Below, in pieces: positions 70 to 42,368 of a stretch of DNA of 64,000 bases. Every line of letters starts with the position of its first letter. Positions within the stretch are counted from its first letter, which is position 1. The DNA lies in assembly GCA_038206475.1 (NCBI GenBank), contig JBBRAU010000002.1, positions 13,892-77,891 on the forward strand. Reading direction: 5' to 3'. Both the position numbers and the translations under genes were made by a program. This DNA is from Patescibacteria group bacterium. Lineage in GTDB: Bacteria; Patescibacteriota; UBA1384; JBBRAU01. Below the pieces are notes generated by a model. The model had not been told where the DNA came from, searched no databases, and saw only the letters and a program-made list of their open reading frames with translations.

Positions 70-150
70 TACTGCTACTATTACGCCTGAGTTGAGGGTT
101 GTTGTGTATATTACTCACATCTGGCAAGCGGAGCTTGCCGCCTCCGGCGG

Positions 151-6318: not shown

Positions 6319-7002
6319 ATGAAAGGGATCACGCTGCATGGCACCCCGGAGGGCTGGCGGAAAATGCCAGTCAAAACCGGGACCGTACGGCTCCACAGAA
6401 CCACGCCGGGGCGGCTGTGGTTTCAAACGCTCATCGTGGAGGAGGGCAGGGAGCATGTGTTCCTGCCCGATGGCTCCGCCGTGGTCAAGGGTCTCGGTGG
6501 GGTCACCACCCTGATACCGGGCCCTAAATACGGCGGCGGCGAAGTCACCCCCGTGACGACGCCGGCCGGGATGGTAGTGGTGAACACCACGACCACCCCG
6601 GGGTCAGCTCGGACACTTCTAAACGCCCGCGGGTGGGGCGGGTATATTCTTGACCCGCTCACCGCAACGGCAACGCCATTCGGCTGCCCCCCAATCCGGT
6701 GGGCAGCCGAACTGCGACCGGACCAGTTCATAGTTGTCGACCCAGGCGGCTACTACGCCTACCGAGTCGACGTGACCTTCCCCATCAACCCCCGCCGCGT
6801 CCAGGGTGACGTTGGCGGCAACGGCAGGTTCGACCTGTCGGATGCCCTGTTGGCGTTGTACTTGCTTCACGGGGATATCAACGCCAACCCCGGCCAGAAA
6901 CAGGCCGCGGACGTCGATGGCGACGGCTTCGTAACGCTGGAAGACGTCATCCGGATGCTGTACGCAGCAACCGGAACGCCATTCAGCTCCCCGCTCTGGT
7001 AA
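6319..7002 (+). CDS. Protein with C-terminal dockerin-like (paired EF-hand Ca-binding) domain
   Basis: DVGGNGRFDLSDALLALYLL and ADVDGDGFVTLEDVIRMLY repeats; by eye the gene is markedly more GC-rich than its neighbours, with CGG/GGG/CCG codons. Confidence 0.55.
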   Translation: MKGITLHGTPEGWRKMPVKTGTVRLHRTTPGRLWFQTLIVEEGREHVFLPDGSAVVKGLGGVTTLIPGPKYGGGEVTPVTTPAGMVVVNTTTTPGSARTLLNARGWGGYILDPLTATATPFGCPPIRWAAELRPDQFIVVDPGGYYAYRVDVTFPINPRRVQGDVGGNGRFDLSDALLALYLLHGDINANPGQKQAADVDGDGFVTLEDVIRMLYAATGTPFSSPLW

Positions 7003-26936: not shown

Positions 26937-27383
26937 CTAGGCTGCTTTAGTTGAAGTTTGGGTAGTCAAAATGCCCAAGTGAGCGGCGACGCTCTTGGTC
27001 GTGGCAATGCCAGACAGGCTGAAGCGTTTGCTCATGTTCGGCGTGGCGACAATTTTGACAGTACCAGGGCGCGTGCGGAGCAGGCCAACCTGTTTTAAGC
27101 GCTGCGGCGTAATAACTGCTCCCTCGTCAAAGCTCGCTTCAAGCGCCGAAAAACGGACGGTGGCCGATTTTGGCGTCAGTGAGCGGAAACCGTTCAGTTT
27201 TGGCAGGCGTTGCACCAGCGGTGTTTGCCCACCTTCAAAGCGCCGCGGGATGTTGTGGCCCGTGCGCGAGTTTTGACCCTTCGTACCGCGGCCAGCGGTT
27301 TTACCCTGGCCAGCGGCAATACCGCGCCCGACACGGCGGCGGCTCTGCTTCGGCATTGAGACGCGAATATCATGCAGTTGCAT
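26937..27383 (-). CDS. rplO: 50S ribosomal protein L15
   Basis: MQLHDIR...GRGIAAGQGKTAGRGTKGQ; start at internal ATG 27383. Confidence 0.85.
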   Translation of the reverse strand: MQLHDIRVSMPKQSRRRVGRGIAAGQGKTAGRGTKGQNSRTGHNIPRRFEGGQTPLVQRLPKLNGFRSLTPKSATVRFSALEASFDEGAVITPQRLKQVGLLRTRPGTVKIVATPNMSKRFSLSGIATTKSVAAHLGILTTQTSTKAA

Positions 27384-28116
27384 TCGTCTCCTCTGTAGCC
27401 AACACCTCGGCCTTTTTAGTCCGTGGCTTGACGGTTTTCTTGACCGGCGTCGCTTCAACTAGTGCGACTTCCTCAACCATTTCGGCTGTTTTGTGGCTGT
27501 CGGCTTGAACGCGGCGCGGACGGTCTGTTTTGAAAGAGGATAGCGCCAAGAGCGTCGCTTTGGTCATGTTAATTTTATTTGAGCTGCCCAAACTCTTGGA
27601 CAGTACGTTTTTGATTCCCGCCAACTCAATGACCGCCCGAACGGCGCCGCCAGCGACAATCGAAGTGCCAGGAGAGGCAGGCTTGAGCAATAAACGCACG
27701 CCAGAGTAACGGACAGTGCTCTCATGCGGGATCGTGTCATTGATAATAGTGACGGTTTGCATATGGCGTTCGGCCTGCGTTTTGGCTTTTTGTACGGCAC
27801 CCGCCACATCGCCGGATTTAGCCACACCCATACCGACCTTGCCAGCACGGTTGCCCATAACCACCAGCGCTCGGAAGCGGATACGGCGACCACCTTTAAC
27901 GACCCGGGAGACACGGTCAACTGAGACTACACGGTCGTCATACTCACTGGTTGAGCGGCTCCGTTGACCGTCGGTCCGGCCGCCGCCTTGGCGACCGCGG
28001 CGCTGACCGTCTGATCCGCCAGCACGTCCGCCCCCCATTGACCGCGAATAATTCGCTGGAGAGGTGGTTGGCCGTGTTTGAGCTGCGCTCGAGGTGGTTG
28101 GTTGTTCTTCAGGCAT
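27370..28116 (-). CDS. rpsE: 30S ribosomal protein S5 (N- and C-terminal extensions)
   Basis: VVKGGRRIRFRALVVMGNRAGKVGMGVAK core; no rpmD (L30) between rpsE and rplO. Confidence 0.9.
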   Translation of the reverse strand: MPEEQPTTSSAAQTRPTTSPANYSRSMGGGRAGGSDGQRRGRQGGGRTDGQRSRSTSEYDDRVVSVDRVSRVVKGGRRIRFRALVVMGNRAGKVGMGVAKSGDVAGAVQKAKTQAERHMQTVTIINDTIPHESTVRYSGVRLLLKPASPGTSIVAGGAVRAVIELAGIKNVLSKSLGSSNKINMTKATLLALSSFKTDRPRRVQADSHKTAEMVEEVALVEATPVKKTVKPRTKKAEVLATEETNATA

Positions 28117-28123
28117 ATCTCTC

Positions 28124-28540
28124 CTAATTCAGTAACTTAGCCGTACGCAGCGCCTCAGCCAACGCCTTGACCCGACCGTGGTAAGCATAACCGGCCCGGT
28201 CAAATACCACGCTCGACACACCGGCTGCTTTGAGCGAGGCAGCCAGCGCTTGGCCAACCTGCTCAGCTTGAGCAGTTTTAGCATTGCTGTCAGCAGAGCT
28301 TGCGACCTGACGGTCTGAAACAGAGCTTTTGGCTGCGCCATAAGCAGAGCTTTTGGCTGCGCCATAGTCTGAAGCGGCGGCAATTGTTTTCATGGCTGTG
28401 TCATCAATAGCTTGGGCGGCAATATGCTTGCCGGAACGGAAAACCGCTACGCGAGGACACTCGGCCGAACCAGCCAAGCGAGTCCGAATCCGCGCTGCGC
28501 GCGTAGCTCGTTTCTGTTTTCGTGGATAGATGGAAATCAT
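28124..28540 (-). CDS. rplR: 50S ribosomal protein L18 (contains in-frame 24-nt tandem duplication)
   Basis: L18 N-terminal RKQKRATRAARIR and C-terminal FDRAGYAYHGRVKALAEALR. Confidence 0.85.
   Translation of the reverse strand: MISIYPRKQKRATRAARIRTRLAGSAECPRVAVFRSGKHIAAQAIDDTAMKTIAAASDYGAAKSSAYGAAKSSVSDRQVASSADSNAKTAQAEQVGQALAASLKAAGVSSVVFDRAGYAYHGRVKALAEALRTAKLLN
28321..28366. repeat. 24-nt in-frame tandem duplication inside rplR
   Basis: CAGAGCTTTTGGCTGCGCCATA twice, encoding YGAAKSSA / YGAAKSSV. Confidence 0.7.
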
Positions 28541-37152: not shown

Positions 37153-37202
37153 TCACGAACGTAGTGAGTGAAAAGGTTCTGGCGCGTAGCGACAGGTTCT
37201 TA
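37153..37202 (-). repeat. Recurring bipartite intergenic motif (copy between tuf stop and rpsJ start)
   Basis: Minus-sense TAAGAACCTGTCGCTACGCGCCAGAACCTTTTCACTCACTACGTTCGTGA; the TAA is the tuf stop codon. Confidence 0.6.
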
Positions 37203-38384
37203 TTTGACGATTTTGGTGACAGCACCAGCACCGACGGTGCGGCCGCCTTCTCGGATAGCGAAGCGCATGCCATCTTCCATGGCAATTGGAGCAATCAGCT
37301 TAACAGTGATATGCACGGTGTCACCTGGCATGGCCATTTCAGTGTCGGCCGGCAGGAAGACTTCACCAGTGACGTCGGTGGTGCGGATGTAAAACTGCGG
37401 TTTGTAACCTTTAAAGAACGGCGTGTGGCGGCCACCCTCTTCTTTGGTCAAGACGTAAATCTCGGCCTCAAATTCGGTGTGGGGCGTAATGGAGCCGGGC
37501 TTGGCTAACACCTGGCCGCGCTCAATCTCTTCACGCTCAATTCCGCGCAGCAAGGCGCCGATGTTATCGCCAGCCTGACCTTGGTCAAGCAGTTTCTTGA
37601 ACATTTCCACACCAGTGACAACCACTTTGCGAGTTGGCTTGACACCGACAATCTCAACCTCTTCGTTGATTTTGACGATGCCGCGCTCAACGCGACCAGT
37701 AGCCACCGTACCGCGGCCTTTAATAGAGAAGACATCTTCAACTGGCATCAGGAACGGCTTGTCGACGTCGCGAACTGGGTCTGGGATGAAATCATCCAAG
37801 GCCTTGACCAGCTCCATAATGTTCTCTTCGTACTTGGCGTCACCCTCAAGCGCCTTCAGGGCGCTGCCACGGATGATCGGCGTGTCGTCGCCTGGGTACT
37901 CATATTTGGACAAGAGCTCGCGGACTTCCATTTCAACCAGATCCAAAAGCTCTGGGTCGTCTACCATGTCAACTTTGTTCAAGAAAACGACAACGGCTGG
38001 CACACCAACTTGGCGCGCCAACAGAATGTGCTCGCGGGTTTGCGGCATCGGGCCGTCGGCGGCGGAAACCACCAAGATGGCGCCATCCATTTGGGCGGCA
38101 CCGGTGATCATGTTTTTGACGTAGTCAGCGTGGCCTGGGCAGTCAACGTGAGCGTAGTGACGCTTCTCTGACTCATACTCCTGGTGGGAGGTAGCGATGG
38201 TAATGCCGCGCTCGCGCTCTTCTGGTGCGTTGTCGATTTCATCGAACTTCTTGGCGGTAGCCATACCCTTTTTGGCCAACACGTGGGTGATGGCAGCGGT
38301 TAAGGTCGTTTTACCGTGATCAACGTGACCAATTGTGCCGACATTGACGTGCGGCTTGTTGCGCTGGAAGGTCTCCTGAGCCAT
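37200..38384 (-). CDS. tuf: Elongation factor Tu
   Basis: [16 protein letters not shown]1 motif, DCPGHADY; start at ATG 38384 with AAGGAG SD. Confidence 0.95.
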
Positions 38385-38493
38385 ACATACTCCTTCTGAC
38401 TTACCCATTGGTGCTTAGACACGACCAATGAGGACCCGCATGCGACCCCAAAAGGCCGCTTTGCGTAGAACTTTGATTTATTTACTCATAAGC

Positions 38494-38522
38494 AGACTAA
38501 CTGATTTTATTGCCTTGGTCAA
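38494..38522 (-). promoter_or_regulatory. Candidate promoter for tuf
   Basis: Minus strand TTGACC - 17 nt - TAGTCT, about 110 nt upstream of the tuf start. Confidence 0.35.
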
Positions 38523-38552
38523 TATTTTGCCACCGGGCCGCTGAGGACGATG

Positions 38553-38586
38553 TAAAAAATCCCCACCGCAGTGTTGCGCGGTGGGG
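38553..38586 (-). terminator. Rho-independent terminator after the small secreted-protein gene
   Basis: 9-bp stem CCCCACCGC/GCGGTGGGG followed on the minus strand by AUUUUUU. Confidence 0.65.
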
Positions 38587-38605
38587 ATGAGGATGCTTGC
38601 CGGCC

Positions 38606-38902
38606 TCAGGGGCCGGCGGTGTCCCACGCGGACTCGGGCAGGAGCTCACTCTCCCTGCGGGCACTGTATATCCCCAGCAGGGCCAGATCCTTCTCGTTTT
38701 CCTCGCCGCGGGCCCCCCTGTACAGGGGCAGGAACTCCTTGCACCAGTCCTGCACGTCCGCATCCTCGGACGTGCAGTCACCGGCGATGGCCAGCCTTTC
38801 GCCATCGTCTTGCTGGTACCTTTCTGTGCCGTCGGTGATGTCGAAGAAGCAGAACATCACCACGAGCACCACGCAGGCGAACACTTCAACGATTTTTTTC
38901 AT
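38606..38902 (-). CDS. Small secreted or membrane-anchored acidic Cys-containing protein, unknown function
   Basis: GGAGG SD 7 nt before ATG; N-terminal hydrophobic segment MKKIVEVFACVVLVVMFCFF; own terminator; AGG/CTG/GTG/GAC codon usage. Confidence 0.5.
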   Translation of the reverse strand: MKKIVEVFACVVLVVMFCFFDITDGTERYQQDDGERLAIAGDCTSEDADVQDWCKEFLPLYRGARGEENEKDLALLGIYSARRESELLPESAWDTAGP

Positions 38903-38982
38903 TGCAGGCCTCCTTGGCCGCGAAATAAAAGGAACAGAGAGTGACTATTTAATTTATGCATTATTTAGTATACTTTGTCAAT

Positions 38983-39783
38983 ATGAAGTATCTCTGGCCG
39001 GCCGCTATCACCCTATGCCTACTGAGCCTATTTTTGTGGCTCCACACGTGGCAACGACCGGCAAACAGCATTGCAGCCTCACCGCAAGCCTCCAGCACTG
39101 CCTATTCGGCTCCACCGAACCCGCTGGCCAGCCTTTCAGCCTCCCCCGCTCTAGTAGACAGTCACACGCCTACGCGTATACCTAAGACGCGTCCAGCCAG
39201 CGTCAATATCAGCGTGCCATTTACTGTCCAGGCGCCAACTGGCCGTTGGGATGCCTTTCATGAGGAAACCTGTGAAGAAGCGGCGGCGCTGATGGCTGCC
39301 TATTGGCGCGACGCCAAATTGCACCGCAGCCTGGGTGACCCAGCCAAAATCCCCAACGATACGACCGAGACCGCTCTGCGCGCAATTGCCGATTGGGAGA
39401 CGCAAACGTTCGGCTATTGGCAAGATACGACGGCCACCGAAACAGCCGAAATTATAACCGATTATTTTCACCTGCAGGCGTCAGTAGAAACCATTGTCAG
39501 CACTGACACAATTGAACAGGCGCTGGCCGACGGCCATTTGGTACTGCTGCCGACCGCCGGCCGTCTACTAAATAGCCCCTACTACACGGCGCCGGGGCCG
39601 GCTTACCACTTTTTGCTCATCCGCGGTTATACCAACACCGACTTCATTACCAACGACGCCGGCACGAAGTACGGCGCAGGCTACCAATTTCGGAAAAAAA
39701 CCGTTCTGCAGGCCATTCACGACTGGACAGGAGACGCGGAAACCATTACAACTGGTCGTAGCGTCATGATTGTCGTGCAGTAG
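38983..39783 (+). CDS. Peptidase C39-like (YvpB-like) domain protein, N-terminal signal anchor
   Basis: Hydrophobic N-terminus, Ser/Pro/Ala linker, VPFTVQAPTGRWDAFHEETCEEAAALMAAYW resembling C39_2 catalytic Cys region; start ambiguous (38956 or 38983). Confidence 0.55.
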   Translation: MKYLWPAAITLCLLSLFLWLHTWQRPANSIAASPQASSTAYSAPPNPLASLSASPALVDSHTPTRIPKTRPASVNISVPFTVQAPTGRWDAFHEETCEEAAALMAAYWRDAKLHRSLGDPAKIPNDTTETALRAIADWETQTFGYWQDTTATETAEIITDYFHLQASVETIVSTDTIEQALADGHLVLLPTAGRLLNSPYYTAPGPAYHFLLIRGYTNTDFITNDAGTKYGAGYQFRKKTVLQAIHDWTGDAETITTGRSVMIVVQ

Positions 39784-39804
39784 CTTTGGAGCTCGAAAAG
39801 GGGA

Positions 39805-40206
39805 ATGATGATTGATCTTCAACATATTGATGCGCGTGCTGAACCGCTAACAGAAGAAAAAGTGCAGGCCATCCTGCTTGGATGCCGGATACGGACAGGA
39901 AAAGCAGCCAGAAAACTGTCGGCCGAATGGTATGAACTGAAATATTACCCAAAGTGGAAGGAGGGCTGGCTGCAGCTCAAAATACTGCGTGAAACCCCCT
40001 ATCCCGAGCGAACAGCCATGCTCTATCACTTCCTCGTCACCTTGCACCTTCACCACTGCTTATCCCACACGCACCAACGTCTTGTCGGGCCGATCACGCT
40101 CTGCGACGCCATGGATGAACAAGTGGCGCTGCTCTGCCAAAATGTCAGCCGTAACCCACCGTGGCGGGAGTGGTGGCTGTTGCAGCATATTCCTGGATAC
40201 CGCTAA
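39805..40206 (+). CDS. Hypothetical protein (His/Cys-rich segment LHLHHCLSHTH)
   Basis: 133-aa ORF with upstream AAAGGGG; ends at a hairpin terminator. Confidence 0.45.
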   Translation: MMIDLQHIDARAEPLTEEKVQAILLGCRIRTGKAARKLSAEWYELKYYPKWKEGWLQLKILRETPYPERTAMLYHFLVTLHLHHCLSHTHQRLVGPITLCDAMDEQVALLCQNVSRNPPWREWWLLQHIPGYR

Positions 40207-40208
40207 CC

Positions 40209-40236
40209 AAAACCCCGCTCTCCGGCGGGGCTTTTT
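40209..40236. terminator. Bidirectional terminator shared by the plus-strand insert and fusA
   Basis: CCCCGC/GCGGGG stem flanked by AAAA and TTTTT. Confidence 0.6.
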
Positions 40237-40295
40237 ATAACATAAGCAAATTATCGAGAAGCGTTCAGTTTGGCTGGATGTTTTTAAGCTCCGCG

Positions 40296-42368
40296 CTACC
40301 TGACTTTACCGGCCTTAATCTCTTCGGCGATATTGTTAGGCACTGGATCGTAGTGATCAAACTCCATGGCGTAGCTGGCCCGGCCTTGCGACAACGAACG
40401 CAGGCTGGTGGCGTAACCAAACATCGAGGCCAAGGGCACCATCGCCCGAATAACTTTAATACCAGCCCGCTCAGTCATTTCCTGAATTTGGCCGCGCTTG
40501 GCATTTAAGTCGCCCATGGCGTCACCCATAAACTCTTCTGGAGTAGTCACCTCAACGTGCATGATCGGTTCAAGAATGACCGGCTTAGCCTTGCGCACCC
40601 CTTCTTGGAAGGCCATTGAGCCGGCGATTTGGAAGGCCATTTCAGAGGAGTCAACTTCATGGAAGCTACCGTCATACAGAACGGCCTTAACGTCTACCAC
40701 TGGATAGCCAGCCACAACACCCTTGTGCGTCGCCTCTTCAATGCCTTTAGCCACCGGATTGATGTACTCCTTGGGAATAGTACCGCCGACAATTTTAGAT
40801 TCAAAGGTGAAACCACTGCCTGGCTCGCCGGGCGACAGCTCGAGCCAAACATGGCCGTACTGACCGCGTCCACCAGACTGGCGAATAAACTTGCCCTCTT
40901 GCTTGACCGTTTCGGTAATCGCTTCGCGGAAGGCGACCTGCGGTTTTCCGACGTTCGCTTCAACTTTGAACTCTCGCTTCATGCGGTCAACGATAATCTC
41001 GAGGTGTAGTTCACCCATACCGGCAATGATGGTCTGGCCAGAATCCTCGTCTGTCCGCACTTGGAACGTCGGGTCCTCTTCGGCGAGGCGCTGCAGAGCC
41101 ACACCCATCTTCTCTTGGTCAGCCTTAGTTTTCGGCTCAATCGCGACGTCAATAACCGGCTCTGGGAAGGTTATGGACTCCAGTTGCACCGGGTGCTCCG
41201 GGTCGCAGAGGGTGTTTCCAGTACGAGTGTTTTTAAGGCCGACGGCAGCCGCAATGTCTCCAGAGTACACTTCACTAACATCCTCGCGGTGATTAGCATG
41301 CAGCTGAACAATGCGACCGATACGCTCTTTATCGCCGGTAGCGGTGTTTAAAATGTAGCTGCCGGCCCGCAGGACTCCACGATAAACGCGGAAGAAGATG
41401 AGTTTACCGACAAACGGATCAGCTGCCACCTTGAAGGCCAGGGCGGCAAACGGCGCCTCGTCATCGGCGGCAATGCCAATATCCTCTTTGGTTTTTAAGT
41501 CAACGCCATGGGCTGGTGGCACGTCCAGCGGCGATGGCAAGTAGGCGACAATAGCGTCGAGCAGCGTTTCAACAACGACGCCACGGCCGTCTCCACCAAG
41601 AATCAGGAAGAAGTCGCCTTTAATGACCGCCTTGCGGATGGCTGTCCGAAAATCAGCGTCAGAAATTTCGTCGCCATTTAAGTATTTTTCAAGCAGCGCG
41701 TCATCAGCCTCAACCGCTTTCTCCAGCAATTCCGTACGGTACTGTTCAATTTGAGCGGCCATGTCGGCTGGCGGCTCACCTTCAACCAGCTCGTGGTCAG
41801 TGTAATCTTTATAGGTGTAAGCTTTGCGCGAAACCAGATCAACCACGCCATTCATTGACTGTTCAAAGCCAATCGGCAGCTGCAGGGGGAAGGCATTCGG
41901 CGACAGGCGCTCGCGGATAGAGGCCAGTGAATTAAAGAAATCGCCGCCGGTTTGGTTAATTTTATTAATAAAGCAGATGCGCGGCACTTGATACTTGTCA
42001 GCCTGGCGCCAGACTGTTTCTGACTGCGGCTCAACACCCATTTTGCCGTCAAAGATAACGACGGCGCCATCCAGCACACGCAGCGAGCGCTCAACTTCAA
42101 CTGTAAAGTCAACGTGTCCAGGCGTGTCGATAATATTAATGCGGTGACCCTTCCAAAAGGCGGAGGTGGCGGCTGAAGTAATGGTAATGCCGCGCTCGCG
42201 CTCTTGCTCCATCCAGTCCATGGTGGCTTCGCCCTCATGGACCTCACCGATTTTGTGGGTTTTGCCGGTGCGGTACAAAATGCCTTCGGTCACTGTCGTT
42301 TTGCCTGCATCAATGTGGGCAATCGTGCCAAAGTTGCGCGTGTGGTCTAGAGAGTACTCTCGGGGCAT
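40296..42368 (-). CDS. fusA: Elongation factor G
   Basis: [10 protein letters not shown]1 motif, 690 aa. Confidence 0.95.

Follow-up and report, generated by a model that had tools for sequence, protein, structure and literature searches.

Bacteria of the CPR/Patescibacteria live fixed to other cells, and the proteins chiefly suspected of recognizing the host are their lineage-specific surface proteins. ORFans usually have a higher AT content than the genome that carries them. The genes of the elongation factors G and Tu, fusA and tuf, are usually adjacent in the str operon. The systems closest to the locus described here are the small membrane or secreted ORFan proteins of CPR bacteria, double-glycine leader peptides and horizontally acquired islets. 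In the window (the whole 64-kb stretch of DNA that was analyzed), the fusA-tuf pair was split by a 1.9-kb island (38409..40295) with three genes: ORF98, a gene for a C39-like cysteine peptidase (ORF275) and ORF133. ORF98 runs from an ATG through 98 codons to a stop, exactly where it had been placed by an earlier reading made from the letters and the list of open reading frames (the sequence-only reading), which had taken it for the gene of a small secreted protein of recent horizontal origin. Our overall reading, to which we give a probability of roughly 55%, is that ORF98 is a lineage-restricted gene for a fast-evolving surface protein tied to the peptidase, with a codon bias that is either long-standing or of old foreign origin.

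The borders and genes of the island were as follows.

40296..42368, minus strand: fusA (EF-G), bordering the island on its upstream side
40213..40231: terminator hairpin between ORF133 (plus strand) and fusA (minus strand)
39805..40206, plus strand: ORF133 (133 aa), second orphan of the island, native composition, without a transmembrane segment
38956..39783, plus strand: ORF275 (275 aa), C39-like cysteine peptidase gene, divergent from ORF98, product membrane-anchored, native composition
38606..38902, minus strand: ORF98
38522..38517 and 38499..38494, minus strand: candidate promoter of tuf itself (TTGACC, 17-nt spacer, TAGTCT)
37200..38408, minus strand: tuf (EF-Tu) as listed, downstream border of the island

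The fusA-tuf island and its host

A separately produced Logan assembly contig of 2,954 bases was 100% identical to positions 38139..41092. Because this independent contig reproduces the junctions between tuf, ORF98, the C39 gene, ORF133 and fusA, those junctions are not chimeric. With the fusA-tuf pair interrupted by the island, tuf needs a promoter of its own, for which the candidate above is available. The listed start of tuf at 38408 (MGKSEGVC...) is less likely than the ATG at 38384, which has AAGGAG before it at the right spacing. The two elongation factor genes also share a 25-nt stretch, ATGGTAATGCCGCGCTCGCGCTCTT, that was identical in tuf (38197..38221) and fusA (42181..42205) and encodes the ERERGITI GTPase motif common to both proteins; the identity extends to every synonymous site, which hints at gene conversion or a strong constraint on codons. 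At the other end of the island, a sub-threshold Rfam match to STnc370, an enterobacterial sRNA (40202..40252, minus strand; 37 bits vs 54, E = 0.006), overlapped the terminator between ORF133 and fusA and is most likely a mere terminator resemblance. ORF133 matched nothing in the family and protein databases searched.

The best database match of EF-G had only 77% identity, and the named EF-G matches came from Patescibacteria, CPR2, Howlettbacteria, WS5, Berkelbacteria and Saccharibacteria, all of them Patescibacteria/CPR groups. Because of this low identity, and because the named homologues of the C39 protein are mostly from Patescibacteria, the host, an uncultured bacterium, is placed by its protein matches as a deep-branching, poorly sampled CPR lineage. 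A scan of genome contigs with the C39 protein found no true sister genome; its single match (38%) was to an unrelated MAG. Since EF-G identity of the available relatives is 77% at most, presence or absence at the same site was seen in distant relatives only. In one of them (L008), fusA and tuf lie 72 nt apart and four extra ORFs lie between rpsG and fusA; in another (L009), three small ORFs separate fusA from tuf, and a third (L010) carries others. These lineage-specific small ORFs around fusA and tuf were unrelated, several had hydrophobic segments, and none in the three contigs resembled ORF98.

ORF275 was assigned to Peptidase_C39_2 (PF13529) with E = 3.9e-7 and 31.2 bits (gathering cut-off 24). 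We found 161 homologues, the named ones being mostly from Patescibacteria (Uhrbacteria, Paceibacterota, Berkelbacteria). The closest (P0005; 62% identity) is encoded on a 1.5-kb contig, L003. Cys106 (ETCEEAA) and His218 (YHFL) were invariant between the two proteins, and the transmembrane and linker part was weakly conserved at this overall identity. A search of the literature on C39 peptidases in Patescibacteria gave nothing useful.

ORF98 as a gene and its predicted product

The signals in and around ORF98 were the following.

38953..38981, minus strand: predicted sigma-70-like promoter, a consensus match only (TTGACA at 38981..38976, 17-nt spacer, CATAAA at 38958..38953)
38909..38915, minus strand: Shine-Dalgarno sequence AAGGAGG, 6 nt 5′ of the ATG
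38750..38777: perfect palindrome CTGCACGTCCG-N6-CGGACGTGCAG inside the coding sequence (codons 42-51), 28 bp with 11-bp arms, hairpin of -20.5 kcal/mol
38599..38617: 7-bp hairpin GCCGGCC-N5-GGCCGGC, spanning the ORF98 stop codon
38554..38588, minus strand: intrinsic terminator with a 12-pair stem (11 pairs perfect), a loop of 6-8 nt and a U run

The strong Shine-Dalgarno sequence and the terminator after the stop codon, both claimed from the sequence alone, were confirmed. With both strands counted, the window had eight copies of AAGGAGG, of which two, including that of ORF98, preceded ORF starts. The promoter scan found an overlapping candidate at ORF98, TTCATA-16-AATAAT. Five overlapping ORFs of 85-204 aa occupy the GC-rich stretch, so ORF length proves nothing here. 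GC was strongly periodic in the ORF98 frame (61, 40 and 82 of 99 codons at positions 1, 2 and 3; chi-square P = 7e-9), and the codon log-likelihood z was -0.21 for ORF98 vs -2.6 to -6.3 for the four ORFs that overlap it. These alternative frames (85, 102, 115 and 204 aa) were discarded for their far worse log-likelihoods; the 102-aa and 204-aa ORFs had no Pfam match. In Rfam 15, the segment belonged to no family, with the best overlap being anti-hemB (19.9 bits vs a threshold of 49.5, E = 0.12). Periodicity, codon log-likelihood, Shine-Dalgarno/ATG spacing, promoter, terminator, an export-like N terminus and the Rfam result together led us to take ORF98 as a real-looking protein-coding gene.

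The predicted protein begins with MKK followed by IVEVFACVVLVVMFCFF, that is, the positively charged n-region and the hydrophobic h-region of a Sec-type signal. The hydrophobic segment covers residues 4-20, where the Kyte-Doolittle mean over 19 residues reaches 2.68; the sequence-only reading had recognized this segment. Its description of an acidic mature part was also correct: residues 21-98 have a pI of 4.1, with 20 Asp and Glu vs 8 Lys and Arg. The three cysteines that it had counted there were miscounted, since the protein has four, two within the hydrophobic segment (C10 and C18) and two in the tail (C43 and C54, CX10C). By eye, T23-D24-G25|T26 was the sole -3/-1 fit to a signal peptidase I site, and the 17-residue h-region equally fits an uncleaved anchor. 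No lipobox could be read: VFAC10 lies too close to the start, with E6, K2 and K3 before it, and VMFC18 has F at -1. ORF98 is thus predicted not to be a lipoprotein. The single-sequence AF2 model was poor (mean pLDDT 57, pTM 0.29); it had a helix at residues 2-27 (pLDDT about 75) and two helices of low confidence (residues 48-64 and 70-87).

ORF98 is a strict orphan. It matched only itself when 5.8 billion proteins were searched through a word index and when 1.84 billion cluster representatives were searched exhaustively with phmmer, and it had no match in Pfam, PHROGs, NCBIfam, PADLOC or the PDB sequences. Remote homology was likewise sought with the model, for which Foldseek gave no PDB match with E < 5, so that neither the fold search nor the sequence databases returned anything for the protein. 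One pattern or tblastn match each in JGI metagenomes (L014) and IMG/VR (L015) was rejected as chance, as it consisted of the octapeptide FCFFDITD read antisense to a 183-aa phage gene. Diversity-generating and other repeats were sought in the window as well, and no part of ORF98 recurred there. Elsewhere in the window, in the ribosomal-protein operon, a 138-aa ORF (28124..28540, minus strand) contains a tandem 24-nt duplication (28318..28365) with copies 96% identical; because the duplication is in frame, the protein has an 8-residue repeat.

Composition and the internal palindrome

Codon statistics were referred to 52 confident genes of the window, cut into 513 chunks of 97 codons. As had been judged by eye, ORF98 is GC-richer than its surroundings (0.62 vs 0.54 for the window). 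Its GC1, GC2 and GC3 were 0.62, 0.40 and 0.83; because GC1 and GC2 are ordinary, the excess is entirely synonymous. Neither this GC3 (0.596±0.055 in chunks) nor the Karlin codon-bias distance (0.734 vs 0.469±0.060) was reached by any of the 513 chunks. Four of the six Arg codons were AGG, a codon used for 3.2% of Arg in the reference genes, where CGC (47%) and CGT (25%) prevailed. The probability of at least four AGG in six was 1.6e-5 (binomial), and no 97-codon reference chunk had four AGG. CTG encoded 7 of 9 Leu, GTG 6 of 7 Val, GAC 7 of 10 Asp and GGC 4 of 7 Gly, so that every codon preference claimed for ORF98 and for its neighbors was borne out. The measures of adaptation were normal (CAI 0.664, 12th percentile; synonymous log-likelihood z = -0.21) because the preferred codons of the host mostly end in G or C. 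Codon usage is statistically atypical by GC3, the Karlin distance and the share of AGG, and inside the normal range by CAI.

The other compositional outlier of the window was a Dockerin_1-domain gene (6319..7002, plus strand), with a GC3 of 0.78 and a 300-nt window (6529..6828) of 0.67 GC. Its RNA folding z was also very negative (-2.1 to -4.5 vs codon-order shuffles). The data suggest that the genome contains a class of GC3-rich accessory surface-protein genes that includes the dockerin gene. Two of the GC-richest 300-nt windows coincided with sizeable terminal extensions of ribosomal proteins, namely of S5 (27370..28116), which has 248 aa with its domains at residues 60-197, and of L17 (20652..21164), which has 170 aa with its domain at residues 18-117.

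Perfect hairpins with a stem of at least 10 bp occurred eight times in the 64-kb window, and mononucleotide shuffles gave none. Seven of them were intergenic A/T-flanked terminators, and the palindrome of ORF98 was the sole non-terminator. It was found nowhere else in the window, nor among the viral contigs of IMG/VR. RNA folding z of ORF98 was -3.2 vs dinucleotide shuffles and -3.9 vs codon-order shuffles (-3.2 to -4.7 with either strand considered), the most negative among 50 gene chunks (average -0.48±1.09). A globally hyper-structured mRNA was nevertheless rejected: synonymous disruption of the single 11-bp hairpin brought z to -1.2, so the signal comes down essentially to one hairpin.

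Origin, role and comparison with known systems

The contig with the closest C39 homologue, L003, also carries a small ORF next to the peptidase gene.

L003 120..377, minus strand: ORF of 85 aa, divergent from the C39 gene, one transmembrane helix, Pro/Asp-rich tail

Its GC was 0.64 and its GC3 0.74, with a GC3 of 0.64 in the adjoining C39 gene. Both small ORFs share one layout: TTGACA, 17 nt, CATAA[AT], 36-37 nt, AAGGAG, 7 nt, ATG. Both proteins end in T-x-G-P-stop within a short hairpin, which in L003 is an 8-bp hairpin (128..149) around ...RTGP-stop. The proteins showed no significant similarity to each other (BLASTP E = 0.14; shuffle P about 0.05-0.1). Local alignment of the flanks against shuffles gave P of about 0.01 upstream, where the promoter elements are consensus motifs, and 0.25 downstream. 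The gene after the C39 gene differs between L003 and the window, and L003, with its 1.5 kb, does not extend to the tuf/fusA context. None of five more distant C39 contexts showed a small ORF paired with the C39 gene. On this thin evidence, we consider the two small ORFs to be positional counterparts, probably orthologues that have become unrecognizable, which points to ORF98 being an older feature of this locus. If they are indeed orthologues with saturated sequences, their synonymous sites should have equilibrated, and the GC3 excess would reflect a gene-specific constraint or bias rather than an import not yet ameliorated.

The recent horizontal acquisition proposed by the sequence-only reading was weighed against several other accounts. 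That ORF98 alone came recently from a GC-richer donor and has kept its codons unameliorated would explain a GC3 and a Karlin distance beyond all 513 chunks, the AGG usage, and an orphan in a segment that is missing at the fusA-tuf junction of L008, an insertion-prone site. However, no donor or homologue appeared among about 15 billion clustered proteins; the borders have no direct repeats, tRNA, integrase or transposase, and the neighboring genes no mobility domains; and the C39 gene and ORF133, which share the island, have native composition. CAI is normal, the dockerin gene shows the same kind of GC3 excess, and L003 has a GC-rich positional counterpart with the same promoter geometry. AGG-rich Arg usage, moreover, is not typical of most high-GC bacteria. 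The comparison with relatives was divided, as ORF98 is absent from the distant L008, which fits an acquisition, and a small GC-rich, non-alignable ORF sits at the same position in the nearest C39 relative, which does not. With no donor, no mobility marks, a normal CAI and this counterpart, recent acquisition was not supported and we regard it as unlikely. Atypical GC3 and one rare codon alone do not show recent transfer. A different kind of youth is offered by de novo birth of the gene, or by repeated replacement of a cassette, behind an old promoter/Shine-Dalgarno platform beside the C39 gene; the ORFs in the window and in L003 would then be unrelated because each is young or was swapped in. 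It accounts for identical promoter/Shine-Dalgarno geometry in front of unalignable proteins that are strict or near orphans. Saturated divergence accounts for them equally well, given that the C39 protein is itself weakly conserved in its transmembrane and linker part. No recombination-site repeats flank ORF98, and de novo ORFs are usually not codon-periodic. We give this origin a low probability.

An untranslated element, either a GC-rich structured RNA or a DNA site centered on the 11-6-11 palindrome with the ORF being incidental, seems similarly improbable. Open frames are cheap in a stretch with five overlapping ORFs, folding is in excess on either strand, and the palindrome is the only perfect hairpin of its length outside intergenic terminators. 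Against this stand the three-base periodicity, the optimal Shine-Dalgarno sequence and ATG, the textbook n-region and hydrophobic start, the lack of an Rfam family, the reduction of the folding excess mostly to one hairpin, and the single copy of the palindrome in the window and the viral contigs. A remnant of a phage or toxin-antitoxin system, in which ORF98 would be a small membrane toxin or holin-like protein and the papain-fold C39-like enzyme a lysin, is the least probable of the accounts considered: one helix at the N terminus followed by a charged tail, beside an N-terminally anchored papain-fold peptidase, would suit it, but none of the three island genes matched PHROGs or PADLOC, no phage genes lie nearby, the viral and metagenome matches were chance matches antisense to a phage gene, and 98 aa with a long acidic tail are unlike type I toxins. 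Only slightly less doubtful is the most ambitious account, according to which the small ORF and the gene of the C39-like peptidase form a conserved two-gene surface module of this CPR lineage whose promoter/Shine-Dalgarno platform is kept while the small protein is hyper-divergent or is swapped as a GC-rich cassette; the palindrome would be functional (in recombination, or for a regulatory protein or an RNase), and it or a related constraint would maintain the synonymous composition. If true, episymbiotic bacteria would have here a variable surface locus of a new kind.

Our best guess remains a surface protein that evolves fast and possibly works with the peptidase. Having no homologue, the protein could also be non-functional. 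According to the predicted signals, ORF98 would be transcribed independently, from the sigma-70-like promoter to its own terminator, and translated efficiently from the strong Shine-Dalgarno sequence. MKK and the 17-residue hydrophobic helix would then either anchor the protein in the membrane (N-in/C-out) or be removed by signal peptidase after TDG25. The acidic tail of ~75 residues, probably helical, would be exposed outside the cell, possibly with a C43-C54 disulfide bond. The back-to-back arrangement recurs in one relative, L003, and for this reason the protein may be tied functionally to the C39-like peptidase, which it could work with, be processed by or restrain. The synonymous bias most likely is a long-standing property specific to the gene, or goes back to an old foreign origin that other accessory genes for surface proteins have in common with it, and does not stem from a recent transfer of this gene alone. 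ORF98 is a curiosity rather than a discovery, and the leads worth following are only two, the palindrome within the coding sequence and the possible module of small ORF and C39 gene.

Among known systems, the palindrome resembles Xer/dif core sites in its 11-bp inverted arms around a 6-bp spacer. It differs from them in lying inside a coding sequence, as a single copy with no recombinase gene nearby, and its arms are presumably unlike the dif consensus; its origin is explained just as well by a neutral template-switch mutation. The island resembles horizontally acquired islets in the atypical codon usage of ORF98 and in interrupting a conserved pair, fusA-tuf. Unlike such islets, it has no mobility genes, att-like repeats or tRNA, only one of its three genes is atypical, and a counterpart exists in the nearest relative. 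Type I toxins are shorter than ~60 aa and mostly hydrophobic, with an overlapping antisense RNA, whereas ORF98 has 98 aa and a 78-residue acidic tail. With double-glycine leader peptides it shares the arrangement of a small Cys-containing peptide gene beside a C39-type cysteine peptidase gene. Its N terminus, however, is of the hydrophobic Sec type and has no GG, and the sole AG|D site (ERLAIAG|D) lacks the hydrophobic spacing of a leader. ORF275, for its part, is a Peptidase_C39_2 (YvpB-like) protein and not the C39 domain of an ABC transporter, and no ABC transporter gene is adjacent. By these features, ORF98 does not qualify as a double-glycine bacteriocin precursor, because it has no leader, or as a type I toxin, because it is too long and too acidic.

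The likeness to the small membrane or secreted ORFan proteins of CPR bacteria extends to the short length, the single N-terminal helix, the lack of homologues and the variable spot in a conserved operon. A small exported orphan and a membrane-anchored cysteine peptidase, encoded within the operon that is the best conserved in the genome, may plausibly belong, as a hypothesis, to the host-recognition set of this lineage. ORF98 differs from other CPR ORFans in being GC3-rich (0.83 vs 0.60) and in holding a perfect 11-bp hairpin.
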